Shown: positions 10,491-32,844 of the stretch, one piece after another
How the letters are laid out: each line of letters opens with the position of its first letter
How positions within the stretch are numbered: position 1 is the first letter of the stretch
DNA from: a virus
Lineage: Duplodnaviria; Caudoviricetes
DNA length: 53,301 bases
Direction: 5' to 3' (one strand)
Virus record (IMG/VR): IMGVR_UViG_3300032297_000671
Location: 1-53,301 of that record
The notes under the pieces: generated by a model
The model's input: only the letters and a program-made list of their open reading frames with translations
Databases searched by the model: none
Told to the model about the DNA's origin: nothing
Translations under genes and position numbers: made by a program

Positions 10491-11453
10491 TTGGATCTAG
10501 CCAATCTTATTTCAAAGAAAAGAATTCTCGTAGTAGGAGATTCTATACTCGACGAATACATTTACGGGAAAGTATACAGGATATCACCAGAAGCTCCAGT
10601 TCCTGTTGTGCTGAAATCTAATAGATCTTATTGTTTAGGTGGTGCCTCAAATGTAGCACAGAATATTATCTCTATGGGAGCTAGTTGTGATCTAATATCG
10701 ATTATAGGAAAAGATCATGCTGGTGATAAATTGTCATCCCTTTGTAAAGATATCGGAATAAATCTAATAGGATTAGATGACGGAAGATCAACTACTGTTA
10801 AATCTAGGGTTATTGGAAATGGCCATCAGATAGTAAGAATCGATGAGGAATCAACTTTTCCTATATCAGAGCATATTGAAAATTGTTTAATTGAGCTTGT
10901 GAATTCTGCTTCACATCTTGTAGATGGAGTTATCATACAGGATTACGGAAAGGGGTTGGTAACAAAAAGAGTTGTTGATCATATCAACTCGTTATTTTCT
11001 AAAAAATTAGTACCAGTTCTAGTCGATCCTAAGGATAATGATATTTCAAAATATTCGGGATCACACATAATAAAGCCAAATCTTTCTGAATTCAAGAATT
11101 TTTTAGGCGTAGATCAAAATATCAAGTTATCTGGGAATGATATAAAAAATAGAGCCATGGATCTAATGCTCAATAACAGCGTAGGATCGCTTTTAATAAC
11201 ACTTTCAGAAAAAGGTATGGTTTATGTTAAAGATGATCTTTTTGTTACCGACAGGGGTGTAAAAATCGATATAACTGATGTTTCTGGTGCGGGTGATACT
11301 GTTAGTGCAGTCTTTATGCTATTTTACCTTGCAGGAATGCCTATCAGTGATTGCTTAAGAGCCTCAAATCTAGCTGGATCACAAGTTTGTAAGATTTCCG
11401 GGGCAGTTCCAGTTAATCTAAATTTGCTTATAGCAGACTTTAATGCCGGATAA
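10491..11453 (+). CDS. rfaE: PfkB-family kinase, D-glycero-D-manno-heptose-7-phosphate kinase (RfaE/HldE domain I-like)
   Basis: Motifs VVGD.ILDEY..G...RISPEAPVPV, GGASNVA.N, DYGKG, VDPK, KPN..E and DVSGAGDT. Confidence 0.88.
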   Translation: MDLANLISKKRILVVGDSILDEYIYGKVYRISPEAPVPVVLKSNRSYCLGGASNVAQNIISMGASCDLISIIGKDHAGDKLSSLCKDIGINLIGLDDGRSTTVKSRVIGNGHQIVRIDEESTFPISEHIENCLIELVNSASHLVDGVIIQDYGKGLVTKRVVDHINSLFSKKLVPVLVDPKDNDISKYSGSHIIKPNLSEFKNFLGVDQNIKLSGNDIKNRAMDLMLNNSVGSLLITLSEKGMVYVKDDLFVTDRGVKIDITDVSGAGDTVSAVFMLFYLAGMPISDCLRASNLAGSQVCKISGAVPVNLNLLIADFNAG

Positions 11454-15839: not shown

Positions 15840-16264
15840 TGGAATTATTTGATATAGTAAAATCGATATTTAAAAACGATAAAGAATGGAGCGTTGTAAG
15901 TCGTAACGACAAGGTTAAGAACTTCTTTATGATCAATAGGATTATGTCTATAGAATTTCCTATACAGGCTAATCAATTCAATCATACTAAGATATCTCCT
16001 AGGCCTGTTGTTGACTGGTGGCATGGAACTTTATCCAAGCATTATACAAGACCTCCTAAATGGATCTTTACTAAAACAAAAAAGAGTGAAGTCAAAGAAA
16101 GTAAAGTTTCTGATCCCCAAATAGACGATGATACTGAAAAATTTATTATGAACAAATTTGAGGTATCTAAAAGAGAATTAGCTGAATTGAAAAAATTCTA
16201 TCCTGAGAAATACAAGGAATGGGCTAGATCTATACAGGATCAATTGAAATCAATTTCTAAATGA
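15839..16264 (+). CDS. putative clamp loader small subunit (gp62-like)
   Basis: FFMINRIMS, ANQFN, KW and FIMNKFEVSKRE resemble the short gp62 of T4-like phages (PF.INR.LS, ANEMN, W.K, Y..S..KA). Confidence 0.45.
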   Translation: MELFDIVKSIFKNDKEWSVVSRNDKVKNFFMINRIMSIEFPIQANQFNHTKISPRPVVDWWHGTLSKHYTRPPKWIFTKTKKSEVKESKVSDPQIDDDTEKFIMNKFEVSKRELAELKKFYPEKYKEWARSIQDQLKSISK

Positions 16265-16267
16265 TCC

Positions 16268-16275
16268 GATATATA
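16268..16275 (+). promoter_or_regulatory. putative late promoter GATATATA
   Basis: Intergenic copy of the recurrent motif. Confidence 0.65.
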
Positions 16276-16288
16276 AAATAATTATCTG

Positions 16289-16837
16289 ATGTATATGAGA
16301 AAGGATTTTCAAAAATTAGTAGAAAAAGTGGTTCAGAGCTTAGATTGGGATACGATCTTTGAAGTCCATAAGGTTTTTCATTTTGGTGTTGGAGAAGGAA
16401 GCGAGGTAATACCTGGACTAAAGAGAAAAGTATTCAGCGACAATTTAACAAAGAATGACGTAAAGAATGAGTTAAAGTTCTTGCTTAGATTCGTTGTAAA
16501 TAATGATATACATAGATTTAGCTACGGGCAATGGATGATAATATGGTTTAATCAGGATTGGGAAATGCCTAACGAAGATGAAGAATTAGACGAGGAGTTC
16601 GAAGATGATATAGAAGAATTTATTCCTGAATCTAGACTTGAGGTATTTTATGCTCCCCAAAGGATTGCTTTAACCTTGAGAGCAGCACCTATAGTAATAT
16701 CCCCAGCCGAAGAAATAGAGAATGCAACTCTCAAACAAATGCTAGACAGTGCTTTATCTAAGGAGGACTACGAATTAGCAAGAAAAGTTCAAGATCTTAT
16801 AGATCACACAAAAACTGATATCAAAACGGATAAATAG
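16289..16837 (+). CDS. hypothetical protein with acidic linker and C-terminal UVR (UvrB/C) motif
   Basis: LKQMLDSALSKEDYELARKVQDLI matches the UVR pattern L...M..A...EDYE.A....D.I. Confidence 0.65.
   Translation: MYMRKDFQKLVEKVVQSLDWDTIFEVHKVFHFGVGEGSEVIPGLKRKVFSDNLTKNDVKNELKFLLRFVVNNDIHRFSYGQWMIIWFNQDWEMPNEDEELDEEFEDDIEEFIPESRLEVFYAPQRIALTLRAAPIVISPAEEIENATLKQMLDSALSKEDYELARKVQDLIDHTKTDIKTDK
16829..16836 (+). promoter_or_regulatory. putative late promoter variant GATAAATA
   Basis: 19 nt before TTG 16856, followed by an A-rich leader. Confidence 0.55.
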
Positions 16838-16855
16838 AGAAAATAAAAATCTATT

Positions 16856-17338
16856 TTGCGTCACATAAAATCTATAAATGAATTCTTCGACGTTGGTGTA
16901 TTTGGAGACACCTACGGATACGGTGGTGCAAATGGTGTTTTTAAAGTACAATATAAGCCTTATAAGGATCTTTCTGTTACTGTAGGTCCTGATCCTAATG
17001 TTGCAAGAACTATTCCAGGTGCAGAATTTCAGATCGGAGATACCGTTATCGGTTTACCTATAAACTCAAAAAAGAAAGTAGCTGGAATGATCGTGAAGGT
17101 CGATAAGGCTCCCGATGGTAAATCGTATAGATACTTTGCTCAGGTCTCTTCGAAAGGAAAGAAGAAGGAAGATGTGCTAGAGCTGGTTCCTAGTACAGTT
17201 GTTTTTGCCGATTCTGGAGACAAAGGACATAAGGAAATAATTTCTAAGTTTAAATTTAATAATCTCCCTTCCGAGGTATACAATTCACCTACTGTTTACA
17301 ATAACACCTCTCTTGGTATAGAGGCAATGGGTAGTTAA
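16856..17338 (+). CDS. putative internal head protein with SH3/KOW-like region
   Basis: N-terminus MRHIKSINEFF is capsid-targeting-like; the protein also has FQIGDTVIG...GMIVKV. Confidence 0.55.
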   Translation: MRHIKSINEFFDVGVFGDTYGYGGANGVFKVQYKPYKDLSVTVGPDPNVARTIPGAEFQIGDTVIGLPINSKKKVAGMIVKVDKAPDGKSYRYFAQVSSKGKKKEDVLELVPSTVVFADSGDKGHKEIISKFKFNNLPSEVYNSPTVYNNTSLGIEAMGS

Positions 17339-17369
17339 GAAACTTTAATCTTTTTTTACTGTAAAAGAA
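17339..17369 (+). promoter_or_regulatory. putative ECF-like promoter GAAAC-N17-GTAAAAG
   Basis: Intergenic, with the conserved spacing. Confidence 0.65.
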
Positions 17370-17372
17370 CTG

Positions 17373-18251
17373 ATGATCTTAAGTAAGAACACAGGTAATC
17401 TTGGTTGCGTAAATAAAAATTTTGGCAGGTCTATAACTTCCTGTTATGATTTCGTGCAGATGGTTTTGAATGAATCTATTGACGCTAATTCTAAATCAAT
17501 AAAATTGTCTTGTTTTGAGATTGGACAGGATTTTAATTTTCCTGACTTTTCTTCCATCGAGGAAGAAGATAAAGTGATGGATCTGATATGGGATCTTTCT
17601 AATTTAATTAGAACTAATTCACATAGGATATTTTTCTTTCTCCCTGGATATTATTTTTTGGGAAGTCAAATGCCAGATGTTGTTGAAAAAACTAGGGAAA
17701 CTGTTCTATCAATTTCTGTTTTTCTTGAAATGATAGGAGTTAGATCAACGTCGATTATATTAAGAGTTGGATCTGCTTATGGTGCTAGAAAAGCAACAAT
17801 GGAAAGATTTAACTCTGAGATTAATTCATTTTTACCTGGAGTTAAAAAATTAATCGCGGTTACGAACGACGAAAAACCTAGTCTTTTTTCGGTAACAGAT
17901 CTTTTGTCCGGTGTTTATTATCAAACCAAAATTCCTATATGTTTTAGATTCCTAGCTCATACCTTCAATAACGGTGGGCTTACATATAAGGAAGCACTAT
18001 TTCTTTCCTGCTCAACGTGGAAAGAAGGTGAAGTTCCAATTTTCATATATTCTGAATCTGACGAAATAGATGAGTTCGGGGCTTTTGTATCGCCAAAGAC
18101 AGCATTAAAGCTAAATCATAGAATCCCAACATTCGGCCTAGAGACAGACGTAATTATAGACTCTGAAAGATCTAAAGAAACCTGTATTAAGTATATGACT
18201 GAAAGAAGCTCATTGAGACCTATAGTCATCAACAAAATGTCTAAGAAATAA
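17373..18251 (+). CDS. uvsE: UV-damage endonuclease (UvsE/UvdE)-like protein, apparently lacking metal ligands
   Basis: VG.AYG.RK.TM.RF, NDEKPSLFSV.DL, IPI.F and TW....P...YSES are recognisable, but the expected His/Asp/Glu ligands are substituted. Confidence 0.7.
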   Translation: MILSKNTGNLGCVNKNFGRSITSCYDFVQMVLNESIDANSKSIKLSCFEIGQDFNFPDFSSIEEEDKVMDLIWDLSNLIRTNSHRIFFFLPGYYFLGSQMPDVVEKTRETVLSISVFLEMIGVRSTSIILRVGSAYGARKATMERFNSEINSFLPGVKKLIAVTNDEKPSLFSVTDLLSGVYYQTKIPICFRFLAHTFNNGGLTYKEALFLSCSTWKEGEVPIFIYSESDEIDEFGAFVSPKTALKLNHRIPTFGLETDVIIDSERSKETCIKYMTERSSLRPIVINKMSKK

Positions 18252-18275
18252 TTTTTTTATAGCGTTCTTTTTGGG

Positions 18276-18283
18276 TATTTTTG
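18276..18283 (+). promoter_or_regulatory. possible Bacteroidota-type housekeeping -7 element (TAnnTTTG)
   Basis: TATTTTTG in the intergenic region, 15 nt before ATG 18299. It is the only clear instance seen. Confidence 0.4.
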
Positions 18284-18298
18284 TAAAAAAAGAAAGAT

Positions 18299-19108
18299 AT
18301 GCCAGAATTAGCTGAGCTTAAGCTCACTGCAGATTATGTAAATAAACAATCGAGGGATCGTATATTTCATCTTGTAAAAAAACAGGAATATCATAAGGGA
18401 GAGGATATTTTCTCTTGTTTAGATTTTCCTTTTATCATAGAAGCAAGCAGTAGAGGAAAGGAATTAATGTTAACTATTTCAACTGCCCCTGAGTTTGCAA
18501 CTGAGGACAATATGCAGGTTAAGCATCTGATGATGACGATGGGAATGGGAGGATGTTTTAAATGGGTTCCTAAGAACGAAGAGCAAAAGCATGCACATAT
18601 CCATTTTATTTCAGATGATGGTTACCTTGCATTTGTTGATATTAGAAGATTTGGGAAATGGAAATGGGGACATTGGAACATTGATAGAGGACCTGATCCT
18701 ACGTTGGACTACACCGCTTTTGTCAATAACATAACGGAAAATTTGGATCATAGGGATTTTAGTAAGCCAATTTATGAAGTCCTTATGAATCAGAGATGGT
18801 TCAATGGAATAGGTAATTATTTACGTGCAGAAATACTTTATCGAATAGAAGGCGCAGACCCTTTCTCGAGTGCAAAGGATTATATTAATTCATATGGACC
18901 TGAATTATTTTCTTTGTGCCGTGACATTCCCATGCTAGTATATAAACTCGGAGGTGGTACATTAAGAGATTGGGAAAACCCATTCGGTGAAGTATCATCG
19001 ATCGGGTCTGTAATGAAATGCTATTACAATCCTACTATGAATAAGATGAAAGATAAAAACGGTCGTACTTTTTGGTATGACCCAAAATGGGAAAAATATG
19101 ATAAATAA
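18299..19108 (+). CDS. nei: Fpg/Nei-family DNA glycosylase/AP lyase, NEIL1-type with zincless finger
   Basis: N-terminal MPE, RGKEL, FVDIRRFG, H2TH motif NQRWFNGIGNYLRAEILYR and C-terminal DKNGRTFWY without zinc-finger cysteines. Confidence 0.92.
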   Translation: MPELAELKLTADYVNKQSRDRIFHLVKKQEYHKGEDIFSCLDFPFIIEASSRGKELMLTISTAPEFATEDNMQVKHLMMTMGMGGCFKWVPKNEEQKHAHIHFISDDGYLAFVDIRRFGKWKWGHWNIDRGPDPTLDYTAFVNNITENLDHRDFSKPIYEVLMNQRWFNGIGNYLRAEILYRIEGADPFSSAKDYINSYGPELFSLCRDIPMLVYKLGGGTLRDWENPFGEVSSIGSVMKCYYNPTMNKMKDKNGRTFWYDPKWEKYDK

Positions 19109-19808
19109 AGGTACACTTAAGAACTGTCTTTTCTTTGATGTTGAGACAGCAACAGGATTCAAAGATTTTTCTTCACTCAAAGAAAGCAACGAAAGACTTT
19201 CTAAGCTCTGGGAGAAAAGATGTGAATATTACAGGAAAGCATATCCAGAGTTATCAGACAAGTCTGTTGACGAGATATATCTTGAAAAAGCTTCATTGGA
19301 GCCTGAATTTTCTAGAATTGTTTGTGTTTCTTTTGGCACACTTGATAGCTCATCCAATCTAAGAATAGTTTCTTTCTGGGGCGATGATGAGATTCATATA
19401 CTCGAAAAAAGCTGTAAAGTATTTAGAAATGCATATGCTAAAGGTATGAAATTAGCTGGGCATAATATAAAGGGATTTGACGTTGCTTGTCTGGGCAAAA
19501 GAATAGTTTACACTGGTGTTGAAAATGGAACTGTTCCACCTAATCTTAATATATGGGATAAGAAGCCTTGGGATTTGCCATTTCTTGATTCATCCGAGAT
19601 ATTTTCTTTTGGTAACTGGGTACAACAAAAATATCTAAGCCTTGATCTTTTAGCATGCTCTTTAGGGGTAGAATCACCTAAAGAAAATCTTGATGGCTCG
19701 ATGGTCTCACATTTTTTCTGGGAATTGAAAGAATATGATTCAATTAAAGATTATTGCGAGCTTGATGTCAAAACCGTTTTTGAGGTCATGAATAAGGTGA
19801 GTATCTAG
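19098..19808 (+). CDS. DnaQ-like 3'-5' exonuclease (PolB-exo2-like)
   Basis: ExoI FFDVET, EFSRIVCVS, ExoII GHNIKGFD, KKPW and ExoIII YCELDV. Confidence 0.85.
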   Translation: MINKGTLKNCLFFDVETATGFKDFSSLKESNERLSKLWEKRCEYYRKAYPELSDKSVDEIYLEKASLEPEFSRIVCVSFGTLDSSSNLRIVSFWGDDEIHILEKSCKVFRNAYAKGMKLAGHNIKGFDVACLGKRIVYTGVENGTVPPNLNIWDKKPWDLPFLDSSEIFSFGNWVQQKYLSLDLLACSLGVESPKENLDGSMVSHFFWELKEYDSIKDYCELDVKTVFEVMNKVSI

Positions 19809-19836
19809 GTCTTAATCGGTTTTTTAAATTCTATCT

Positions 19837-19874
19837 AGGATTATTTGGATATATAAACCAAATAATCCTTTTTT
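19837..19874 (+). terminator. terminator-like hairpin enclosing a late promoter
   Basis: AGGATTATTTGG-ATATATAAA-CCAAATAATCCT-TTTTT. GATATATA at 19848-19855 spans the loop, and the hairpin abuts GTG 19875. Confidence 0.75.
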
Positions 19875-20666
19875 GTGAATACTGTTTTAGATTTTTCGTC
19901 ATATTTTCTTACTGAAGCAAAGATAGGCTCATTTTATAATGATGAGCTAAATCCTAAATTTTGGGATAAGTATACATCAAAAGACGGTAAGGTAAAATGG
20001 GTATTCGATCCTTTGGTTCGAAAGAAGCTTCTTAAAATAGCTGACGATTTCTATTCTAAGTTCGGGGATCTACTTGGAGATCTTCCTATATCTGATATCC
20101 AATTAACAGGATCTCTTGCTAACTACAATTATACGGATCAATCTGATTTGGATGTCCACGTTTTGGTTGATTTCAGCAAGATAAGTAACGATAAAAAAAC
20201 TTTAAAGGCTGCTATAGATGGTATCAGATTCATGTGGAATCTGAGACATGATGTTATAATAAGAGGCCATGATGTTGAGCTATATCTGCAGGATATCAAA
20301 GAACCTCACACAGCATCTGGATTATATTCACTTCAAGATAATAAATGGATCAGAGTTCCTAAATTCGATCCACCAGAAATTGATGAGCAAGATGTGAAGA
20401 AAAAATTCGAATCTATAGTTTCCGAAATCTCGAATTTAGAATCAAAGCTTGTACTTGTTCCAGAATTACCATCGGAAGCGAAAGATCTTTATAAGAGATT
20501 AAATAGGATCAAGGAAAAGGCTCAAAAAATGAGGAAAGAAGATCTAGGATCAAAGGGTGAATTCTCTGTTGGTAATCTCGTCTTTAAAAAGCTCAGAAAC
20601 GAGGGATATATAGCTAAACTGATAGATCTCATATCTAAGTCTTACTCAAGGATTTATTCAGAATAA
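19875..20666 (+). CDS. Pol-beta-superfamily nucleotidyltransferase
   Basis: DIQLTGSLANYNY...SDLDVHV carries the GS and DxD motifs, and DVELYLQD supplies the third acidic residue. The N-terminus MNTVLDFSSYFLTEA is CTS-like. Confidence 0.85.
   Translation: MNTVLDFSSYFLTEAKIGSFYNDELNPKFWDKYTSKDGKVKWVFDPLVRKKLLKIADDFYSKFGDLLGDLPISDIQLTGSLANYNYTDQSDLDVHVLVDFSKISNDKKTLKAAIDGIRFMWNLRHDVIIRGHDVELYLQDIKEPHTASGLYSLQDNKWIRVPKFDPPEIDEQDVKKKFESIVSEISNLESKLVLVPELPSEAKDLYKRLNRIKEKAQKMRKEDLGSKGEFSVGNLVFKKLRNEGYIAKLIDLISKSYSRIYSE
20605..20612 (+). promoter_or_regulatory. possible late promoter for 20680
   Basis: GATATATA 67 nt before ATG 20680, inside the 3' end of the upstream gene. Confidence 0.45.
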
Positions 20667-20679
20667 AAAATTTAAAAAG

Positions 20680-23316
20680 ATGATTCTAGTTTTTAGAAAA
20701 GGCGCTGTCTATAAGGCTACACCAGCCTCAGCAAAAAGAGATACAGTAAAGCCGGAGAATATTTTTCCATTAATGTCATTGCCTCTAAATGCTAAGGGTG
20801 TTGCAACAGATCTTAATGATTTTCAATGGTGGGCATATTCTGATAGATGGGATAAATGGTTAAAAGCTAATCCTAGAGAATGGACAGCTGAATCAATAGA
20901 TCCTGCTAAGTATGATTACAATACATTAAAGGAGGAGCTTGATAATAGAGTTAGACCTCTTACAAATTACATTTCTGATCAGGCATCTAGTCTAATCACT
21001 GGTGAAAAAGCAGTTAGCTTTACCGAGTATATGAAGATCCTCGAATCTAATGAAGAGGAAGCGTCTGGATCTAAAGATGCATTGAAAAAGTATATTAAAC
21101 TTGGATATGCAGTAGATTCCTTGAGAAAATCAGGAAAGCTAAAAACCACAATGGCGGTTTCTTCTCTCGAAGCAGGAAAACCTTATGCAGTGGTGGTTGA
21201 TTTCATGGACGAAACCCAAAAACCGATAGCTGAATCTAGGCAGGCTTTGAGAATGACTAAGATAAAGGAAACTCCGAAACTTGTTCTTGCAAAAGTTGAT
21301 TATAGTATCCCTACCGGAAAAATAGAGGATGAAGTTGATAGCTTTTTGGATAAGGTTATAGACGTTACAAAAAGCGTAGCAATTGCAGGAGTATCTTTAG
21401 CTGCTATCTACGGTGTTGTTCAAGTAGCCGGATCGATATGGGGTGGATGGCAACTATTCAAAACCGGAAATAAAATTTACAATTGGGCTACTAAAAAACC
21501 TGCTATAGAAGCTGCAGCAAAAAGCGGTGGTGGAGCATGGAATGCTATTAAGAATTTTGCAACAACTGCATGGAGTGGAAAAAATGCAGCATCTGTTGTT
21601 AATGCAGCAAGAACTACACTTCCTTCTGGAGCATTTGTTGAAGGCGGACTTGCCTATTCTGCTGAAGGTGTTCTCCTTAGAGGTGCAGCAGCAAACTCTG
21701 TTAAAGCAGCAGCAGGAAGACTAATTGCACAGAACGGTGGTGCAGCAGTTGCAGCAGCAGGAGCCGAAGCAGCAGGAGTATCTGGTATAGTTGCAGCAGA
21801 AGCATCTAACCCGATAGGATGGATAATAGCAGCGGCTTCGATCATAGGATCCGGTGTTAATCAGATATGGAACTGGATGAGTGATAAGCAAGCCCCAAGA
21901 TATTCTGATATCGATAGCTTTGCTTATGGAAGCTTCTCCCCTGGTGATATTCCTGTAGGAAAACCAATTACTGTTTGTTGGACTAGCGACGGTGGAGGTG
22001 GTGGATGGGGATTCGTTGCGGATCTTCTAACATTTTCTAAAGACGATACAAGAACTACAATGGAACTTGTTAAAATTGGAAGCTTTAAAGATAGATCTAT
22101 CTTCCTATTAACTCAGGTTAATTCTAAGGGTCTTCAGAAAATGATGAAGGATAACGATTTAATACTTCTTTCATTTGATAACGGTGATAAGTTCGAAAGA
22201 GGTACATTCGATAATGATGATCTTGAATTTGAAACTATCGCAATACAGGATATAACTAAGCTAACTATTGGAACTTCTTTTGTTGGATACAGCGGATGGG
22301 AAGATATGCAAAGTGCATATAACGAAGCACCCGATTCTGCATTTTATGTACCTGGTGGAGCTAGACAAGAATACCCATTCCACTATGAAAATGCGGAGGG
22401 TAAAAAAGTCAATGTAACAGGAACCCTTGTATCTAAGGATGAGCTTGAAAATATGGACATCGCTAGATTGGTTCCGATCCCGGGTGAGGGTGTTCTAGCC
22501 GAATCTAAATCTATTGTTTATGTAAATTCTTTAAATGAGAATAAATCAGTTCTTTCTTTTGACGAATTCTTTAGCGACAGAAAAGCAATTATGGAAGATG
22601 ATAAATCTGAGGATAATGAGACAGAGGATCAAGCTGAAATGAGTAATTGGTCTAGAGAATTCACCGAAAGAAAATCTTCATCCAACTATAGATCTTCATC
22701 TAGCTACGGACAAATTCCTATGGCTGTATACAAAGTTGATAATCTACAATATGTTGATCCGAATGAGAGTGGAAAAGCAGGAGACTTTTCTTACTATATA
22801 GTAGATCCGGATAGCTTGGATGCTCAACCTGGACAAGCTATTGGTGTTGAATCTGCATCTACTGAAGATGCTATCAACGATCCTAGATTTGGACTTGATA
22901 CTTACGTTAAACCTGAGGTTGAGCAACAGGAAGAGACACCTGAGGAGGAAGAAGTTATCATAGAGCCTGTAGAGGAAGAGCCGGGAGAAGTTATATCAAC
23001 ATCTAAGGGAGATGTTAATATCAGGAAAGGTAAAAATTCAGTAACTATAAAAGACAAGGAAGTTAGTGGAGGTGTTAATATACTTGATGAATTCGGTACA
23101 GATGAACTTAAGAAAGACCTTGCTATCAATAATTGGGATGGAGTTACTTCAGTTAAGCTAAGATACGATCGACTTGGCGAACCCCTTAATGTTATTATTA
23201 AAAATAGAGGAGCTTCTGCTGGAGATAAAAGAAGAGTTATCCGAAGAGGAGAGCTTGGATTTGATGATGCTGTAAAATTTGCAAAGGACGTTGAATCTGG
23301 AATAAAAACGATTTGA
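20680..23316 (+). CDS. large putative virion/ejection protein with Ala/Gly-rich hydrophobic helices
   Basis: Hydrophobic segments VAIAGVSLAAIYGVVQVAGSIWGGW and NPIGWIIAAASIIGSG, plus several [LI]xES sites. It lies directly upstream of the head genes. Confidence 0.6.
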   Translation: MILVFRKGAVYKATPASAKRDTVKPENIFPLMSLPLNAKGVATDLNDFQWWAYSDRWDKWLKANPREWTAESIDPAKYDYNTLKEELDNRVRPLTNYISDQASSLITGEKAVSFTEYMKILESNEEEASGSKDALKKYIKLGYAVDSLRKSGKLKTTMAVSSLEAGKPYAVVVDFMDETQKPIAESRQALRMTKIKETPKLVLAKVDYSIPTGKIEDEVDSFLDKVIDVTKSVAIAGVSLAAIYGVVQVAGSIWGGWQLFKTGNKIYNWATKKPAIEAAAKSGGGAWNAIKNFATTAWSGKNAASVVNAARTTLPSGAFVEGGLAYSAEGVLLRGAAANSVKAAAGRLIAQNGGAAVAAAGAEAAGVSGIVAAEASNPIGWIIAAASIIGSGVNQIWNWMSDKQAPRYSDIDSFAYGSFSPGDIPVGKPITVCWTSDGGGGGWGFVADLLTFSKDDTRTTMELVKIGSFKDRSIFLLTQVNSKGLQKMMKDNDLILLSFDNGDKFERGTFDNDDLEFETIAIQDITKLTIGTSFVGYSGWEDMQSAYNEAPDSAFYVPGGARQEYPFHYENAEGKKVNVTGTLVSKDELENMDIARLVPIPGEGVLAESKSIVYVNSLNENKSVLSFDEFFSDRKAIMEDDKSEDNETEDQAEMSNWSREFTERKSSSNYRSSSSYGQIPMAVYKVDNLQYVDPNESGKAGDFSYYIVDPDSLDAQPGQAIGVESASTEDAINDPRFGLDTYVKPEVEQQEETPEEEEVIIEPVEEEPGEVISTSKGDVNIRKGKNSVTIKDKEVSGGVNILDEFGTDELKKDLAINNWDGVTSVKLRYDRLGEPLNVIIKNRGASAGDKRRVIRRGELGFDDAVKFAKDVESGIKTI

Positions 23317-23350
23317 TAAAAAAACGTCAAATTTTCCGTAAAAGTAAAAA

Positions 23351-23358
23351 GATATATA
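23351..23358 (+). promoter_or_regulatory. putative late promoter GATATATA
   Basis: Intergenic, 25 nt before the protease ATG. Confidence 0.72.
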
Positions 23359-23383
23359 AACTTAAATAAACGATAGTCAACCA

Positions 23384-25396
23384 ATGGGAAATAATCCAAA
23401 TTCATTGAACGAGAATCTATTCTTTATATTAGAAAAGCAAAATGACAATCTTGCCGTTTCTAAAGTAGATTCCGATTCAGGTAAAGAATACATTCTTCAG
23501 GGAATAGCTGCTCAGTTTGGCAAGGAAAACAATAACAATAGAATCTATGAGGAAGGTGAATATCTTCCGCATCTTGACTATTTAAAGGACAAGATCAAAC
23601 AAAAAAGACTCCTAGGAGAATTGGATCACCCAGAAAAGTTTGATGTTTCTTTAAAAAATATTTCTCACGTTATCGACGATTTAGAATACGATAAAGACGG
23701 GAGAGTTCTTAAGATCAAGGTAAAATTGTTAGATACACCTGCTGGTCAGATAGCTAAAAAATTAGTTGATGCTGGAATTCCTTTAAGTATTAGTTCTAGA
23801 GCCGCTGGTCAAGTTGGACCAGATAAAAAGGTTCAAATCAAGAAGATTTTTACGTATGATTTAGTTGCTGATCCTGGTTTTCAAGATGCTCAGCTAGAGA
23901 GAGTTTATGAGTCTGCAGACTTTGTTACGTTCGTTGATCACCAAAAAAATTCAATAATAAACAGTCTTGAATGCGTAAATGAATCATTTGGATTAGAAAA
24001 TGAAAATTCATTGAAGATATATAAAGTTGAAAATAACGAGGAATTCGAAAAACTCTTTAAGTCAGAAGAAAAAAATAAATCCGCTACTATGGAGCAAAAA
24101 GAATATGTGACTGCTGATGAACTCAATAAATATTCTATCTTTTTAAAGAAGAAAATGGATGAGCTTGAGGCACAAATAAATGAAATGAAAAACGATGCTT
24201 CAGTATCTGAAGCTTCAACTGTTACAACTACTGACACTTCTGCTTTAGAAGAAAGGGTAGCTAAGCTTGAGAAATATTCAGAGTATCTTGCTGAAAATCT
24301 AGACGGTGCAATTAAATATGGTGAATATCTTGCTGAGAATCTAGACAACAGCATCACTTACTCTAAGTATCTTGCTGAAAATCTTGATAAGAACATCTCT
24401 TATGCTAAGTATCTAGCTGAGAATGTTGATAAGTCTATTTCATATTCAGAGTATGTTGCTGAGAATGTTGATAAGGCTATCGACTATTCTAAATATTTAG
24501 CTGAGAAAGTTGATGATGGTATTCAATACACAGAATATGTTGCTGAGAACCTTGATAAAAATATCGCTTATTCTGAGTATCTTGCAGAAAACCTAGATAA
24601 AGGTATCGCTTATTCTGAGTATCTTGCAGAAAACCTAGATAAAGGTATTGCTTATTCAGAATACATCGCAGAAAAATTAGATCAAGGAATTCACTTCACT
24701 GAATACCTTGCTGAAAACGTAAACAAGTCGGTATCTTATTCTGAATACATCGCAGAAAACTTAAATAAGGGTATCGCTTATTCAGACTATCTAGCTGAAA
24801 AGCTAAATGGTAACATCGCAGAAACTGAGTCTATCTCAGAGAGCGTAAAAAATGGTAAATCTGTTAACTTGAACGAAAGTGCAAGAGAAAATGCAGAAAT
24901 TATCGCTAACACAGAATTGGTAGAGTCTGGTTTTGCTGGAGATTATAATTCAATCTCAGGCAAAATTGACGCTCTAATTGAATCAGTCAAGACGCAAAAG
25001 ACTGAGGAGAATATAAACGAGGCAAGAACGAAAGTTCAGCCAACTGCTCAAACACAAAAAGCAGATGAGGCATTGAATGAAGGAATTGAATCTAATGTTA
25101 AGTCATCAGGTTACAAGTTTATCGATCAGATGCCAGAGGAATATGCTCAGGTTTGGGAATCCTTAAATGAAAACCATAAGCAATCTATTGTTGCTCAGGC
25201 TTCTTTCTACAATTTGGAAACTCAATATCAGATCAATAACTTCTGGTCTACTAGACAACTTGATACAAAAACAATTGGACTTCAAAAACTTCAAGAAAGC
25301 CAAGAAACACCAGAACCAACAAAAGAAAGCTTATCACCTGCATATTCTAACGACTATGTACAGTGGGTAGCTAAGTCTCTTGAAGGTAAGTTTTAA
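23384..25396 (+). CDS. gp21: prohead protease (T4 gp21-like) fused to scaffold/core domain
   Basis: N.NNRIY, LGELDHP, SHVI, LLDTPAG, ISSRAAG and YDLVADPGF..A, followed by a long coiled-coil/repeat C-terminal region. Confidence 0.9.
   Translation: MGNNPNSLNENLFFILEKQNDNLAVSKVDSDSGKEYILQGIAAQFGKENNNNRIYEEGEYLPHLDYLKDKIKQKRLLGELDHPEKFDVSLKNISHVIDDLEYDKDGRVLKIKVKLLDTPAGQIAKKLVDAGIPLSISSRAAGQVGPDKKVQIKKIFTYDLVADPGFQDAQLERVYESADFVTFVDHQKNSIINSLECVNESFGLENENSLKIYKVENNEEFEKLFKSEEKNKSATMEQKEYVTADELNKYSIFLKKKMDELEAQINEMKNDASVSEASTVTTTDTSALEERVAKLEKYSEYLAENLDGAIKYGEYLAENLDNSITYSKYLAENLDKNISYAKYLAENVDKSISYSEYVAENVDKAIDYSKYLAEKVDDGIQYTEYVAENLDKNIAYSEYLAENLDKGIAYSEYLAENLDKGIAYSEYIAEKLDQGIHFTEYLAENVNKSVSYSEYIAENLNKGIAYSDYLAEKLNGNIAETESISESVKNGKSVNLNESARENAEIIANTELVESGFAGDYNSISGKIDALIESVKTQKTEENINEARTKVQPTAQTQKADEALNEGIESNVKSSGYKFIDQMPEEYAQVWESLNENHKQSIVAQASFYNLETQYQINNFWSTRQLDTKTIGLQKLQESQETPEPTKESLSPAYSNDYVQWVAKSLEGKF
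24089..25396 (+). CDS. putative nested in-frame scaffold protein (435 aa, MEQKEYVT...)
   Basis: Internal GATATATA at 24016-24023 and an A-rich leader AAAAAAATAAATCCGCTACT precede an in-frame ATG at the protease/scaffold boundary. Confidence 0.5.
   Translation: MEQKEYVTADELNKYSIFLKKKMDELEAQINEMKNDASVSEASTVTTTDTSALEERVAKLEKYSEYLAENLDGAIKYGEYLAENLDNSITYSKYLAENLDKNISYAKYLAENVDKSISYSEYVAENVDKAIDYSKYLAEKVDDGIQYTEYVAENLDKNIAYSEYLAENLDKGIAYSEYLAENLDKGIAYSEYIAEKLDQGIHFTEYLAENVNKSVSYSEYIAENLNKGIAYSDYLAEKLNGNIAETESISESVKNGKSVNLNESARENAEIIANTELVESGFAGDYNSISGKIDALIESVKTQKTEENINEARTKVQPTAQTQKADEALNEGIESNVKSSGYKFIDQMPEEYAQVWESLNENHKQSIVAQASFYNLETQYQINNFWSTRQLDTKTIGLQKLQESQETPEPTKESLSPAYSNDYVQWVAKSLEGKF
24272..24817 (+). 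repeat. 13 tandem 42-bp (14-aa) repeats, consensus YSEYLAENLDKGIA
   Basis: Directly visible in both the protein and the DNA. Confidence 0.95.
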
Positions 25397-25419
25397 AAAA
25401 CAAAAAAAATAAAAAAACA

Positions 25420-27114
25420 ATGAAACTAATTAACGAAGCAGAAATCTTCGAAACCTGGTCTCCTATCATCGAGCAGAAGGCTGGAATCGCAGATACTGAA
25501 AAGAAACAGTGGCTTTCTAAATATTGTCACTACCACTCATTGAACGAATCAGCTGGTGCTTATTCTTCTTTGAACGTTGTTAACGGTATGGGTGCAGTTA
25601 CACCTCCTACCTTCCCAACTAACACCAACGCTAACGCTGGTTTTTATAACTCATCTTGGCAAGGATCTGGCGATAAATTCCCTTCACTTCTTCCATTGGC
25701 TATTCAGGTAGCTGCGAAGACTGTAGGTTTTGACATCGTTCCAGTTATCCCTATGTCAGGTCCTACTGGCGTATTGTCATACCTTGACTACGTTTACGCT
25801 GGTGGTAAAATCAGCCCAACTTCTGTTGGTGACACAGCTGCTGATGCTTTAGCTGCTGCTCCTGCAATGATCAAATTGCAAATCACTTCACTTGCTTCAG
25901 GATATCCTGCATCATTTGCGGTTGGTACTACTTACTACATCACTAACGCTTCTTCAGCTGGTGCATACATCACTACTAAATTCGTAGGTCTATCAAGAAT
26001 TGATGGTTACCCTATCTTTAGAGTAGAAGGTGTTACTGCTGGTGAGTCTATCGCAGCTGTTATCGACGGTGGTGCTACTAAAGTTGGTACTTCAATCAAC
26101 GGATCTCAAGCTGGTACTACTACTGCTTCTGCAGCATTAGTTAAAGCTTTAGAAGACCACATCCAAGGTTTCTCTGGTGCTGGTTTCCAAAACAGCGATA
26201 ACTGGCAAGGTCCATTCGTTGACGGTACTAAAACTTACAACCCAATGCTTAGAGCATACGGTGAGAGTAACTACTACCAGTCAATGGGTCTTTCGACTTT
26301 CACTAAGTTCGTTGAGGCTGACACTTTCCAAGTAGCTGCTTCTGTAACTACGGAGCAAATCCAAGACCTTAACAAACAATTCGGTATCGACGTTATCTCA
26401 ATGATCGAGAACGCATTGGTTAATGAGGTTTCACAAGCTATCAACAAGCACATCCTTTCTAGAGGATTCGCTCTTGGATGGTCTAACCACTACGACTTCT
26501 ACACTACAGAAGGACAAAACTTGAACCTTAACCTTGTAATTGGTGGTACTGCAGGTTCATACACTATCCCTTCATACGTAGGTAAAGATGACACTGGTTT
26601 AACTCTTGCTGGAACTGCTGGTCCTGCAACAGGAACTTACGAGAACTTGTCAACTCTTCAGAGAAGATTATTCTCAAGAATTCTTGCTGCTGCTAACGTA
26701 GTTGCTAACAGAGGTAGAAGAGGTCCTGCTAACTTCATCGTTACTAACGCTAACGTTGCAAGTGCATTGCAAGATATCTCTCAGTTCACTTTCGCTCCTT
26801 TCTCTAACACGTTGACTCAGAACAACGGTACATTATACCCTGTAGGTTCACTTGCTGGTATGACTGTTTACGTTGATCAGAACATGACGTTCTCTGATAC
26901 GAGAGTATTGGTAGGTAGAAAAGGTGGTGATGACGAACCAGGACTTAAGTTCATGCCTTACATGATGGCTGAGTCTATTCAGACAATCTCTGAAGGTACT
27001 ATGTCACCTAAGATCGCAGTTAAATCTCGTTACGCTTTAGTAGAAGCTGGTTTCCACCCAGAAACTATGTATTTCTGCTTCAACGTTAACTTGCCTGCTG
27101 GAGGTATCTCCTAA
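25420..27114 (+). CDS. gp23: major capsid protein (T4 gp23-like, HK97 fold)
   Basis: LPLA..VAAKTVGFDIVPV.PMSGPTG, EQIQDL....GID, RGRRGPANFIV, G.LAG.TVYVD, FMPY and P..AVKSRYAL. Codon usage is strongly biased, as expected for a highly expressed gene. Confidence 0.93.
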   Translation: MKLINEAEIFETWSPIIEQKAGIADTEKKQWLSKYCHYHSLNESAGAYSSLNVVNGMGAVTPPTFPTNTNANAGFYNSSWQGSGDKFPSLLPLAIQVAAKTVGFDIVPVIPMSGPTGVLSYLDYVYAGGKISPTSVGDTAADALAAAPAMIKLQITSLASGYPASFAVGTTYYITNASSAGAYITTKFVGLSRIDGYPIFRVEGVTAGESIAAVIDGGATKVGTSINGSQAGTTTASAALVKALEDHIQGFSGAGFQNSDNWQGPFVDGTKTYNPMLRAYGESNYYQSMGLSTFTKFVEADTFQVAASVTTEQIQDLNKQFGIDVISMIENALVNEVSQAINKHILSRGFALGWSNHYDFYTTEGQNLNLNLVIGGTAGSYTIPSYVGKDDTGLTLAGTAGPATGTYENLSTLQRRLFSRILAAANVVANRGRRGPANFIVTNANVASALQDISQFTFAPFSNTLTQNNGTLYPVGSLAGMTVYVDQNMTFSDTRVLVGRKGGDDEPGLKFMPYMMAESIQTISEGTMSPKIAVKSRYALVEAGFHPETMYFCFNVNLPAGGIS

Positions 27115-27137
27115 TCTTAGTTAACTAGGAATATATT

Positions 27138-27167
27138 AAACCCCAGGTTTCGGCCTGGGGTTTTTTT
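27138..27167 (+). terminator. intrinsic terminator after the capsid gene
   Basis: AAACCCCAGGT-TTCG-GCCTGGGGTTTTTTT, with a UUCG tetraloop. Confidence 0.93.
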
Positions 27168-27176
27168 GTTTGTATG

Positions 27177-27184
27177 GATATATA
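27177..27184 (+). promoter_or_regulatory. putative late promoter GATATATA
   Basis: Immediately after the terminator and 22 nt before ATG 27207. Confidence 0.72.
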
Positions 27185-27206
27185 GAATAAATCCATTTAC
27201 TGTGTA

Positions 27207-28316
27207 ATGAAGAGAATATTAAAACATCAGGAATTTTTAAAGAGAAGAGACCTTTATGAACCGATTGACGAGTCCATAATGATGGACCTAATGAACATAT
27301 CGTTAAATGAGGGATCTGTTTTAGATTCTCTTAAAAATTCATTAGATAAAACTATTTTCGGTAAACTTTCTAGACTTTCCATAATTGATAGAATAAGAAA
27401 GAGTAATCTTGAAATTCAGAAGGAGATCATAAACAAAGAATATGACGTAAAGGAGGATATTGCTGCTTTGGAAGTTAAAATGGATACCCTAAGAAAAAGA
27501 GGGGCCGATAAGAAAGATTTTTTGCAGATTGAACAGGAGATAGAAAGGAAAAAGAAAGAATTTTCTTCTTATATAAAAATGCAAAAAGCAAAGATGGATC
27601 AGGGTAGAAATCTCCTTGATAAAACCATCTCTAATAACGAAAGAAGAAGAGAGTATTATGAAGCTGGAGCAGCTGATGATAGATTCGAGATCGCAAAATT
27701 TGAATATGAATTAGCTAAGAATAAGACATCAGATAAAGATGAAGTTGATAAGCTAAAAGTTAAATTTGAGGAAGCTGCTAAAAAGGCAGAGGAGATGATT
27801 AAAAGCTCTATGGATTCTTCAAAGAAATCTTCAAAGAAATCTTTGAATGATAATGATCTCTCCGATCTCTCAGCTTTAAGAAAAACTATCGGCGAAAATG
27901 ATGCTGATACTATCATAGAGTTAAAACAAAAAACTGCTGATAGATCTGATGAATTAAAGAATAAGCTTAAAGATGGTCTTAAAGATTTGACTGATTTTAT
28001 CAAAAAAATGCACATTAAGAAAGTTCCTGTTTCTGATCGAGTTATAGAGAAAAAGCTAGATCCACTAGTTAAGCTTTCCAATGAGATCGATGCCTGTGAT
28101 AATCTATATAAGCTATATAGCAGAATGGGTAAAAGCAGATCTCAGATAGCAAAGAGCATCTCAACGACATCTGCTTTAAGTGATCTTTTCACTAAGATTA
28201 ATAGCGCTATCTTAGATGGTAAAGATGCAGGGTCTGGTTTAACTAGTATGCTTTTGGTTCTTGAGGCTGACCCAACCGCGGATAATATTCAGAAAGTAAT
28301 AAAAAAAATATCTTAA
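27207..28316 (+). CDS. coiled-coil putative internal head protein (paralog of next gene)
   Basis: N-terminus ILKHQEF...IDES...LNEG; Lys/Glu-rich helices. Confidence 0.6.
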   Translation: MKRILKHQEFLKRRDLYEPIDESIMMDLMNISLNEGSVLDSLKNSLDKTIFGKLSRLSIIDRIRKSNLEIQKEIINKEYDVKEDIAALEVKMDTLRKRGADKKDFLQIEQEIERKKKEFSSYIKMQKAKMDQGRNLLDKTISNNERRREYYEAGAADDRFEIAKFEYELAKNKTSDKDEVDKLKVKFEEAAKKAEEMIKSSMDSSKKSSKKSLNDNDLSDLSALRKTIGENDADTIIELKQKTADRSDELKNKLKDGLKDLTDFIKKMHIKKVPVSDRVIEKKLDPLVKLSNEIDACDNLYKLYSRMGKSRSQIAKSISTTSALSDLFTKINSAILDGKDAGSGLTSMLLVLEADPTADNIQKVIKKIS

Positions 28317-28317
28317 G

Positions 28318-29208
28318 ATGCTTTTGAAATTTAAAGAATGGGATAACTCAAACCCAGCAATAAACGAATCTGCTCCATTAGAAAAAATAATGAATTGGCT
28401 TAGCTCCAATTTTGGTGGAACAGTTTCTGAAATTGACGGATTACTTTCTAAGGTGTCTTCAATAGAAGCCCAATATGTAGAAGACTGGAATGATATCCAA
28501 ACCGATATAGATTCACTCGAGGTTAGAAAGGCACAAACAAAATCTGATGCTGCTGAGCTTAAAAAGCTAGAGAGGATGATCGATAGAAATCGTAAGTTAC
28601 TAACTGCTTTACAGAGAAAAAAGAAAGCAGATTTAGAAAAGATTGATGCCAAAGCTGAAAAAATAATCGGTGGCAAATCAAGACTGATTTCATATTGGAA
28701 TCTTAAGAAGGCAGAACTTGAATCAGATATAGCTGAAAAGTTATTTGGTTTATCTAAAGAACTTACAGACGAAAGCATTGCGGATGAACTTTATAATAAG
28801 TATAAGGATGCTGCTTTGGATGCTAAGAAAAAGGATGAAGCTTTTAGAGAAAAATTCGGAAAGCTTGATCTAGCCAAATCTTCTACCATAGAAAAAGAAA
28901 CAGAGTCTATATCTAAATCAAACTTTTCTTTAGACCCTATTCTAGCCATGAATGCTGTCCAGTTTACTAAATATGTTCAGGGGCTAGAAAAATCTCAGGT
29001 TAAGGATCTGATAAAGTTTATAACAAGAGAAAGAAACGAGAAGTATGCAACTCTTGATACAGAGAAAGATAGATTAAAAGACCAGGCTAAGAAAAAAGGT
29101 TTGAGTGATGAGTCTGTTTCTTCTAGCATAAGTGATCTCAGAGAAACCTTGATGGAGCAAATTAGGGATCTAAGAACTAAAATAACTATTGCAAGAAGAT
29201 ATGCGTAA
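28318..29208 (+). CDS. coiled-coil putative internal head protein
   Basis: N-terminus MLLKFKEW...INES; aligns with 27207 around DI..LEV and Y.......IA.....L.K. Confidence 0.6.
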   Translation: MLLKFKEWDNSNPAINESAPLEKIMNWLSSNFGGTVSEIDGLLSKVSSIEAQYVEDWNDIQTDIDSLEVRKAQTKSDAAELKKLERMIDRNRKLLTALQRKKKADLEKIDAKAEKIIGGKSRLISYWNLKKAELESDIAEKLFGLSKELTDESIADELYNKYKDAALDAKKKDEAFREKFGKLDLAKSSTIEKETESISKSNFSLDPILAMNAVQFTKYVQGLEKSQVKDLIKFITRERNEKYATLDTEKDRLKDQAKKKGLSDESVSSSISDLRETLMEQIRDLRTKITIARRYA

Positions 29209-29470
29209 GTACATTAAGCCCCTTAGTTCCGAACCACTACTAGAAGGAGTAAATGAGGATCTAGTAAAATCAAAAGCTGATGTTAACGCAAAGTTGGCAG
29301 AGATAGCTGCTGAGATAGCAGTTCAAAAAGAAGCTGAAACTACTTTAAATAAAATCGCTTCTATAAAAAAACAGGCTACTCTTTATTCACAACTACCAGC
29401 TTTATTAAATAAGCTCGCTTCTTCAATGGAGGCCAAAGAAAAATCTGGTGACACAACAACTATTTACTAA
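29201..29470 (+). CDS. small helical putative head protein
   Basis: The ATG at 29201 overlaps the end of the upstream gene; the protein begins MRKYIKPL...LLEGVNED. Confidence 0.6.
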   Translation: MRKYIKPLSSEPLLEGVNEDLVKSKADVNAKLAEIAAEIAVQKEAETTLNKIASIKKQATLYSQLPALLNKLASSMEAKEKSGDTTTIY

Positions 29471-29472
29471 AG

Positions 29473-31881: not shown

Positions 31882-31885
31882 TACC

Positions 31886-31915
31886 GAAACCTGATTAAAT
31901 GTTTTCAATAGAATC
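31886..31915 (+). promoter_or_regulatory. putative ECF-like promoter GAAAC-N17-ATAGAAT
   Basis: Intergenic, with the conserved spacing. Confidence 0.55.
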
Positions 31916-31920
31916 CATGG

Positions 31921-32844
31921 ATGAATAATTCTGGATTATATCTTTTGAGTTTTTGTAGTAAAGGAAGTCCATGGGATTTGGGAAGGGACCTTTCTGCTAA
32001 TTCTGAAATGATCAGATTGATCCTGTCTCCCTATTTTAATGAAATTTACATATACTCTCCTGAGGATATAAAAACAATGGGAGGGACAGATTTTTGTAAT
32101 CAACGTCCCGGCGAATTTCCTCTTAATCCTGGAATAAATGATCTAGGATGTGGTGACTTCAAACCATTCCTGATAGATCATACACTTAAGATGATTCCAG
32201 AGGGATCTATTTTAATATACCATGATTGTAATTTTTCTAAGTATCCACAATATTGGCAAACAGATTGGAAAAATCTATATGAGACTTGTTCAAGTTTACT
32301 TGAGATAAACAAGTCCGATATTTTTATGCCATTTGAAACCCCAATTAGGCCAACTAAAGGTATTCAGCCAAAAGTAAGAATGCACGGAAAGAGGCACACC
32401 ACACTTTCTATAATAAAAGATCCGATAGAGGCAGAGATAGTTTCTGAATGTTATGAGATCGCTTCTGGAAGAATGGTAATAAGGAATTCGAATTTCTCCA
32501 GAGACTTCTTTTCTGAGTACCTTCGGCTTTGTTCAATTCCAGAATTAATAGAAAAATATCCAAATCCAAATCCATATCCACAATTTACTCATCACTGTCC
32601 AGAACAACATATATTAAATTGTTTAATTTATAAGTATATTTTGGATGGAAAATTAGATCCCCTTTTTCCAAGATTTATGTTTCCTATGAGAAGACTGTTG
32701 ATTGATGACGATGTAAAATCTTTCGTAAATCACAAATTGACGAAATATCTTTCTGAAAAATCAATACAAATATTACAAAAAGAGGATTATGATAACGATT
32801 TTCGAGGGACAAAGGAATTCGGGGAAGACATTTTTAGCACATAA
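31921..32844 (+). CDS. putative glycosyltransferase-like (GT-A fold) protein
   Basis: FKPFLI..TL....EGSILIYHDC and H..EQ.IL resemble the KPY.I...L...GD.L.Y.D / HR.DQS.L pattern of GT-like proteins. Confidence 0.5.
   Translation: MNNSGLYLLSFCSKGSPWDLGRDLSANSEMIRLILSPYFNEIYIYSPEDIKTMGGTDFCNQRPGEFPLNPGINDLGCGDFKPFLIDHTLKMIPEGSILIYHDCNFSKYPQYWQTDWKNLYETCSSLLEINKSDIFMPFETPIRPTKGIQPKVRMHGKRHTTLSIIKDPIEAEIVSECYEIASGRMVIRNSNFSRDFFSEYLRLCSIPELIEKYPNPNPYPQFTHHCPEQHILNCLIYKYILDGKLDPLFPRFMFPMRRLLIDDDVKSFVNHKLTKYLSEKSIQILQKEDYDNDFRGTKEFGEDIFST

Follow-up and report, generated by a model that had tools for sequence, protein, structure and literature searches.

Why would a tailed phage place the gene for a Pol-beta-type nucleotidyltransferase (NTase) at the head of its capsid-building genes? 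The question is raised by an open reading frame (ORF) of 263 amino acids at positions 19875-20666 (+ strand) of the IMG/VR virus record IMGVR_UViG_3300032297_000671, whose full 53,301 bases are called the window here. An earlier sequence-only reading had proposed that the product is packaged in the virion and injected into the host. The ORF is genuine: its GTG at 19875 is the first start codon past an in-frame TAA at 19863-19865. We find that it very probably encodes an active NTase of Pol-beta fold that belongs to a family of its own, outside any curated family, and that its N-terminus resembles the capsid-targeting sequences (CTS) of phage T4. In the account that we favor, which we rate somewhat above an even chance, this is a late-made, CTS-tagged enzyme that is trimmed by the prohead protease, borne in the head and injected to act as a nucleoside monophosphate (NMP) transferase.

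The catalytic residues are close to invariant when counted over the protein itself and 149 representatives of clusters at 50% identity. The catalytic hG[GS] motif lies as T-G79-S80 in the turn after the first helix (G79-S80 at 20109-20114, + strand), with G79 kept in 148 and S80 in 144 of the 149 representatives. The metal-binding [DE]x[DE] pair, on the strand that follows, is D91-L-D93 (20145-20153, +; D91 in 148/150 sequences and D93 in 149/150). E135 (20277-20279, +) stands in V-E-L-Y on model strand 132-140, at a position that is glutamate in 143 of 150 sequences, aspartate in 4 and glutamine in 3; its position, rather than any superposed metals, makes it the likely third metal-binding carboxylate. 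Further conserved positions are H95, W121, W158, P162, K177, R220, K238 and R241. The GS motif, the DxD pair and the third acid that had been called intact are all present and near-invariant over the 150 sequences.

Database matches place the protein among nucleotidyltransferases while leaving it outside their named families. It falls in PHROG 36119, a family of unknown function (1.8e-39), and taken singly it scores 18.5 bits with Pfam NTP_transf_2 (cut-off 21), 17.9 with MTPAP-like_central and 15.2 with Polbeta, sub-cut-off matches that all cover the G-S...DxD stretch (20109-20153). In the 51-member alignment, NTP_transf_2 matches 35 sequences at E <= 0.01, MTPAP-like_central 22, Polbeta 14 and SidM_N 6. 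The family is very large, with 1242 clusters (90% identity) at E <= 0.001 among 2226 candidates, and 3655 representatives of 50%-identity clusters at E <= 0.001, 668 of them at E <= 1e-30. Its neighbors in the ESM Atlas are 94-100% viral where taxa are known; a search of that atlas returned only the protein's own viral clusters, and a search of BFVD returned 11 matches at E <= 0.001, all of them unnamed or generically named phage proteins.

An AlphaFold2 model built from the 51-sequence alignment (mean predicted local distance difference test, pLDDT, 89.3; predicted template modeling score 0.78) shows a Pol-beta catalytic domain at residues ~25-165 and a C-terminal helical bundle at ~168-263, both within the part predicted to form the mature enzyme (19917-20666 including the stop codon, + strand). 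With Foldseek, no solved structure reached E <= 0.001, and the top rows are all nucleotidyltransferases (AAD(9) 1.3e-3, CdnE 1.5e-3, ANT(6) 8.3e-3), either with a helical second domain or of the cGAS/DncV-like type (CD-NTases). Pairwise alignment of residues ~25-160 with VIA gave moderate Z scores of 5.7-6.8 against 2rff, MNT (8xeo), CdnD, AadA, HI0073, TENT5 and Tailor. Compared with the sequences of solved structures, the family profile matched the AMPylation domain of DrrA (E 0.0052) and 2rff (0.024), and the single protein reached a best E of 0.18. In a wide VIA search the list was taken up by matches to the protein's C-terminal helical bundle (Z up to 10.4), which say little for a fold of this kind.

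At the N-terminus, residues 1-14, MNTVLDFSSYFLTE (19875-19916, + strand), form a proposed capsid-targeting propeptide that ends in LTE at residues 12-14, with a proposed cut after E14. The pLDDT of residues 1-20 is about 50, against 89 for the entire model, and the leader lies outside the predicted fold; it is an add-on rather than part of the enzyme, because other members (for example P0122-P0124, P0128 and P0132) have no leader and start straight at the conserved core. In the closest relatives the N-terminus follows the pattern M-x-x-[VI]-x-x-[FY]-x-x-[FY], then 0-8 residues, [LI]-x-E and x-[KQ]-[IV]-x-x-F-Y-N-D-E, so that the length of the linker differs from one relative to another. When 115 close relatives are aligned on the glutamate, which makes its own 115/115 invariance a matter of construction, L or I fills the position two residues earlier in 112, and residues further upstream are much more variable. 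The residue between varies freely (F in 33, N in 28, L in 27, S in 9, V in 8, with T among the rest).

The enrichment of this site holds at two levels of redundancy. Among leaders of 12-45 amino acids in the closest 90%-identity clusters, 100/104 contain [LI]xE against 25.0 +/- 4.1 in shuffles, a count that overstates the independent evidence because the sequences are interrelated; among leaders of the 50%-identity representatives the figure is 40/71, against 20.0 +/- 3.3 in 500 shuffles with a maximum of 28. The CTS-like leader ending in LTE that had been read from the sequence is present, outside the fold and enriched in [LI]xE over shuffles, and by these comparisons the N-terminal segment has the pattern of a protease site. 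A different kind of leader appears on the remote homologues P0162, P0168 and P0221, which begin ...ELSDEELEQV.GGS; we take these to resemble the double-glycine export leaders of bacteriocins, which would be another type of cleavable leader on the same NTase family.

T4 offers a precedent for how such a leader would work. There, the CTS are propeptides of 10-20 amino acids that direct Alt and the internal proteins into the core of the prohead, and the protease gp21 cuts after glutamate in short motifs to remove them, with Alt cut at ITE-6 and LTE-619 (PMC5694885); a second source gives the T4 CTS as MKTYQEFIAE (PMC8442874). In the window, a T4 gp21-type prohead protease is encoded at 23384-25396 (+ strand; PHROG 207, 7.4e-40; Peptidase_S77 and Peptidase_S80), and we propose that it removes the NTase leader. 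The protease itself keeps LNE and ILE near its N-terminus in relatives, and its C-terminal part holds an array of ~14-amino-acid units, each with [LIV]AE (repeats at 24326-24805, period 42 or 84 nt). With one gp21-type site per unit, the protein resembles a protease joined to a scaffold destined for cutting into 14-mers. The Gp23-type major capsid protein (25420-27114, + strand; Pfam Gp23 7e-41) has four [LI]xE sites in its N-terminal region, and its HSLNE followed directly by SAGAY is invariant in 9/9 relatives with a readable N-terminus.

At least seven other late proteins of the phage clade begin with the same type of tag. For this comparison we used relatives with loci around the NTase gene and around the asparagine-synthase-like gene at 33270. 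Six late ORFs in the region 27207-38889 (+ strand; starts at 27207, 28318, 29189, 29473, 34776 and 37957) have in relatives the N-terminal pattern M..hydrophobic..[FY]..[FW], a variable linker and [LIV][N/x]E, as judged from up to 14 distinct N-termini per ORF among 26-49 tblastn matches; the same comparison found no such tag at the neighboring ORFs 31921, 35492 and 38996. The tag on these six ORFs suggests that head cargo proteins form a large set. A 160-amino-acid ORF at 16856-17338 (+ strand) is a further probable head cargo: its nine-residue leader MRHIKSINE is like those that T4 internal proteins carry and is kept as M[KR]H[IL]KS[IL][NY]E in 13/13 relatives. This ORF belongs to no known family and lies among repair genes, downstream of a copy of the motif GATATATA (described below) at 16268.

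The position of the gene fits a head protein. As the sequence-only reading had noted, the NTase gene stands first in the capsid cluster, and it is followed 3' by an 878-amino-acid ORF (20680-23316), the prohead protease and the Gp23-type capsid gene. The label of ejection protein that the same reading had given the 878-amino-acid product is unconfirmed and remains a guess, because that protein, which has a Gly/Ala-rich hydrophobic center at about residues 225-400, matches nothing in Pfam or PHROGs; its relatives are only 28-46% identical, and in L013-L017 another gene takes its place. The order NTase, protease, capsid on one strand recurs in 13 of 80 viral loci, and two more loci end before the protease; the NTases of these syntenic loci are 52-74% identical to the query. 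Four further loci of the 80 have the NTase beside portal, head-closure or protease genes. PHROG annotation of 29 remoter loci, covering 145 flanking ORFs, put the gene between large-terminase and head-closure or portal genes in seven and inside a tail sheath/tube module in two.

Putative late control of the gene, also claimed from the sequence alone, is supported by an enriched motif that the head genes have in common and by a conserved hairpin around it. The octamer GATATATA (19848-19855 at this locus) occurs 13 times in the window, always on the + strand, against 4.56 copies expected, and none of 100 shuffles reached 13. Nine of the 13 copies sit 21-39 nt ahead of an ORF start; copies precede the protease gene (at 23351) and the tagged late genes that start at 27207 and 34776 (at 27177 and 34750). 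Before the NTase gene the late-promoter-like motif GATATATAA (19848-19856, + strand) lies 27 nt upstream of the start codon. The motif recurs 22-29 nt before a GTG or TTG start of the NTase gene in 14 of 15 syntenic relatives, and it is present in the fifteenth, L010, as well, where the start call fell on a TTG inside the motif. A gp55-like late sigma factor, encoded at 5753-6112 (+ strand; PHROG 234, 1.3e-14; Sigma70_r2 below cut-off), presumably reads it. The consensus of T4 late promoters, TATAAATA, shows no enrichment (9 copies; 8.1 expected). Two copies of GATATATA lie within coding sequence, at 20605-20612 (3' end of the NTase gene, coding there for a family-wide G-Y-I) and at 24016-24023 (in the protease gene); both are kept in relatives and may be internal promoters or a coding coincidence.

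The motif at 19848 sits in the loop of a terminator-like hairpin (19837-19874, + strand), with arms at 19837-19848 and 19858-19869 pairing over 12 bp, a loop of 9 nt and a T run at 19869-19874 that ends immediately before the NTase GTG. The RNA fold has an energy of -14.9 kcal/mol (z -3.17), and 3 of 200 shuffles were equally stable. Twelve relatives fold a hairpin around the motif with different stem sequences (z -1.1 to -6.5), and in 9 of them no more than 1 shuffle in 200 was equally stable. A scan of 16000-27500 for sigma-70 promoters and terminators gave counts equal to those of shuffles, and the hairpin at 19837 was not among its hits. We propose that transcripts from the upstream repair genes would terminate at the hairpin, or that the hairpin would block their translation. 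Late transcripts, by analogy with T4 late genes, would start inside the hairpin because their promoter motif lies in its loop, and would escape it. The T4 lysozyme gene is a precedent for late expression controlled by a hairpin. A hairpin with a late promoter in its loop would make a compact device for strict late expression.

Evidence from virions comes from a distant homologue. A tblastn search of phage records found 45 with a homologue, in megaphages, Lak phages, Maribacter phages Molly and Colly, Caulobacter phage Cr30 and a cluster of T4-like cyanophages. The match in Synechococcus phage S-CREM2 is ORF156 (126012-126725; 30.8% identity, E 2e-25). In the S-CREM2 report, ORF156 appears in Table 3 among the proteins of CsCl-purified virions, under the name of hypothetical protein and with 6 unique peptides (coverage 15.2%); the table also includes ORF155 and ORF154, an NMNAT-like cytidylyltransferase (PMC10665884). 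The N-terminus of ORF156 reads MKKLISE followed by L. That of ORF154 (L085, 2588-3448) reads MKNFSSFLTE followed by A, which is like the T4 CTS and nearly matches the end of the query leader, FSSYFLTE followed by A; the text of PMC10665884, as far as available, makes no mention of this tag. A comparable start, MKLFNQFFKE followed by A, is found in S-CRM01 g127.

Packaging of the NTase into the virion is likely, because the tag, the other tagged late proteins, the gp21-type protease, the late control and the presence of S-CREM2 ORF156 in virions all point the same way. To this extent the packaged NTase of the sequence-only reading is supported, by the tag and by a distant homologue. In the full account that we favor, residues 1-14 would act as a T4 CTS-type propeptide and carry the enzyme into the core of the assembling prohead. 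The gp21-type protease would then cut after L-T-E14, as the comparative evidence suggests, and leave in the head a mature enzyme with the new N-terminus AKIGSF. The enzyme would exit with the DNA and, in the newly infected cell, transfer an NMP from a nucleoside triphosphate (NTP) to an acceptor. Our preferred guess for that acceptor, given that T4 Alt modifies RNA polymerase, would be a host protein or another macromolecule, and in any specific target we place far less confidence than in delivery itself. Removal of the leader might also activate the enzyme, and so keep it quiet in the producing cell, a step that we offer as speculation.

Several observations weigh against this account. A leader of 12-45 amino acids is absent from 74 of 145 representative homologues, and leaderless members also occur in head modules (L021, L034 and L040-type loci); the tag is therefore not a property of the whole family. 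The site motif is common: [LIV]xE lies within the first 20 residues of 20 of 51 window ORFs, including such obvious cytoplasmic enzymes as the ligase, the clamp loader and the Fpg-like glycosylase, and since counting it near N-termini does not discriminate, we used conservation in relatives in its place. The virion detection is that of a 31%-identical protein from another phage family, and the authors of that study warn that abundant non-structural proteins may co-purify with virions (PMC10665884). In cyanophages and Maribacter phages the gene has replication or nucleotide-metabolism genes around it; the cyanophage homologues lie among replication genes, and the homologue in Maribacter phage Molly adjoins a NUDIX gene.

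These points lead to the strongest rival, in which the protein is a late enzyme of the producing cell that never enters the head and that carries out RNA 3'-end repair or tailing, or reactions of nucleotides; its N-terminal segment would be an ordinary helix (for example for oligomerization), and its homologue in virions would be carry-over. We regard this as unlikely, though it deserves more weight than any other alternative. Some of the family's fusions and neighbors fit it. In 43 fusion proteins examined in Pfam, 39 of them also in PHROGs, a few join the NTase to adenylate kinase (P0156), NUDIX plus 5'-nucleotidase (P0237), 2H phosphoesterase (P0207) or a cytidylyltransferase-like stretch (P0199), or to a peptidoglycan-binding domain or an M23 peptidase. 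Two of the 29 remoter loci have the gene beside a 5'-3' deoxyribonucleotidase (L059 and L062), one has it beside topoisomerase II, and L025 carries a PNK/HAD-like gene; most of the other remoter loci have neighbors of no known family. The fusions to adenylate kinase, NUDIX and 2H domains, with the deoxyribonucleotidase neighbors, fit a cytoplasmic role in metabolism or RNA repair, and jumbo phages carry Pol-beta NTases for RNA repair in the RlaP family, according to a published account (PMC7824862). However, most of the fusions join regions of no known family, none of 51 members matches Pfam RlaP at E <= 0.01 (nor does the query at E <= 1), and no RNA ligase lies next to the gene; the one ligase that the window encodes is a DNA ligase, 7 kb upstream. 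A cytoplasmic role also leaves unexplained a leader that lies outside the predicted fold and carries a protease-site pattern, the same tag on unrelated late proteins of the clade, and the recurrence of head- and tail-module positions in separate lineages.

Delivery as an effector is a separate step from packaging, and the tag, late control and head-module position would be equally expected of an enzyme that is packaged but acts in the prohead or head, where it might nucleotidylate a head protein or a DNA end, or that serves as a component of the core or scaffold. This we consider improbable: the active site is strongly conserved in thousands of phages with very different head genes, the leaderless members fit a target outside the head better, and a supply of NTP in a sealed head is doubtful. 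That the protein is a catalytically dead member of the fold, kept as a binding module or decoy, would agree with its NTP_transf_2 score below the Pfam gathering cut-off of 21 and is otherwise very hard to reconcile with catalytic residues that are all present and near-invariant and with the conservation of the polar and aromatic residues H95, W121, K177, R220, K238 and R241.

If the packaged-and-delivered account is right, its most far-reaching form can be stated, with low confidence. The injected enzyme would act before phage gene expression and nucleotidylate a host macromolecule so as to disarm or reprogram it, for example a defense nuclease or toxin (as MntA AMPylates HEPN RNases) or a component of transcription or translation. 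Its propeptide would serve twice, loading the enzyme into the head and keeping it inactive until the prohead protease removes it. Were this doubtful but consequential version true, the 3655 clusters at 50% identity, with their diverse leaders, would represent a widespread and unrecognized class of phage-delivered effectors.

Whatever the target, a family that is very large, confined to viruses and listed until now only as hypothetical proteins gains from the analysis a fold, an intact active site and a probable route of delivery; one of its members already appears in a virion proteome. To our knowledge, few enzymes ride in the phage head and go to work ahead of genome expression. Examples are T4 Alt, the N4 virion RNA polymerase and P1 DarB, and such enzymes decide the first minutes of infection. 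If the NTase is injected, NMP transfer would be a new chemistry for early host takeover or counter-defense, and the phage would provide a natural case in which jumbo-phage capsids are loaded with an enzyme by means of a T4-style tag. To speak of an undescribed effector system, as the sequence-only reading did, is too strong where delivery is concerned, because the route is the known CTS/gp21 route of T4; the enzyme family appears to be undescribed as head cargo, and, among the papers listed, our literature search found no description of a packaged Pol-beta nucleotidyltransferase. A preprint on host CD-NTases activated by phage prohead proteases concerns a different matter (PMC12991175).

The rest of the window agrees with a T4-type phage of large genome. 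The record has a G+C content of 35% and an estimated completeness of 18%, so that the source phage would have roughly 300 kb. Nearly all ORFs lie on the + strand, and T4-type core genes include a TnsA-like head-closure protein, two Portal_T4 genes, a clamp loader and a DNA ligase, besides the late sigma factor, the Peptidase_S77/S80 prohead protease and the Gp23-type capsid protein already described. Upstream of the NTase gene lie repair-type enzymes (UvdE-like, Fpg/Nei-like and PolB-exonuclease-like). The T4-type portal genes stand in tandem at 7234-8862 and 8874-10478 (Portal_T4 2.3e-60 and 7.8e-59) and encode proteins 53% identical over 505 amino acids; portal paralogues side by side are unusual for a phage. 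Dispersed in the structural region are genes for a PfkB-family sugar kinase (10491-11453), the asparagine-synthase-like protein (33270-34730) and a NUDIX protein (39618-40214).

Comparison with known nucleotidyltransferases places the enzyme in none of their families. The nearest neighbors of its catalytic domain are minimal NTases: 2rff (Z 6.8, root-mean-square deviation 3.9, 97 residues aligned), MNT 8xeo (6.3) and HI0073 (6.2). Weak sequence signals also link it to MNT/MntA (MntA 13-14 bits; PADLOC PDC-S09 at E 5e-4 to 3e-2), although the query is twice as long and has a C-terminal helical bundle of its own. As a MntA/MNT type VII antitoxin it can be set aside, with 13.2 bits against an NCBIfam cut-off of 60 and no HEPN match in the window; the genes on either side of it are an exonuclease-like gene and the 878-amino-acid ORF. 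The aminoglycoside and lincosamide NTases AAD(9), ANT(6), AadA, ANT(4') and LinB likewise consist of two parts, a Pol-beta domain and then a helical one, and supply the top full-length Foldseek matches (E 1.3e-3 to 6e-2), but TM-scores are about 0.2 and nothing points to an antibiotic substrate; ANT(4')-II reaches 11.1 bits in one relative against a cut-off of 350, and Pfam Adenyl_transf is matched by 1 of 51 members. For the CD-NTases in CBASS, the anti-phage signaling systems based on cyclic oligonucleotides, no PADLOC CD-NTase model matched any of eight members at E <= 1 and no effector gene lies nearby, and the likeness in fold (CdnE E 1.5e-3, CdnD Z 6.3) is no closer than to other nucleotidyltransferases. 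The AMPylation domain of DrrA/SidM gives the best family-profile match, and SidM_N is touched by the 6 of 51 members counted above. DrrA/SidM is also an injected NMP-transferase that acts on a host protein, which we treat as a mechanistic analogy and nothing more. The match is weak and short, lying over the G-S...DxD stretch, and DrrA/SidM is an effector of bacterial type IV secretion.

As regards delivery, S-CREM2 ORF156 is a true homologue detected in purified virions, and the ORF154 of the same phage has a CTS-like start; in contrast to the query, ORF156 would have a much shorter leader (MKKLISE), and its gene lies beside the late sigma factor and replication genes rather than in a head cluster. 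T4 Alt and the internal proteins of T4 come closest as analogues. Alt differs in chemistry, ADP-ribosylation rather than NMP transfer by a Pol-beta fold, and its packaging, cleavage and injection are established, whereas those of the query are inferred. Like Alt, the query would be a late-made enzyme that is taken into the prohead and trimmed by a gp21-type protease at (L/I)xE, here at LTE-14. The T4 internal proteins are small and basic, unlike the enzyme that would be the cargo here, and the tag of the query has a greater length, linkers that vary and a second aromatic position. They nonetheless offer the closest likeness in the tag itself, a propeptide of ~10-20 amino acids that ends in [LI]xE and is hydrophobic at positions 4 and 7, and in its use, with the unrelated cargo proteins of one phage having the same tag in common.

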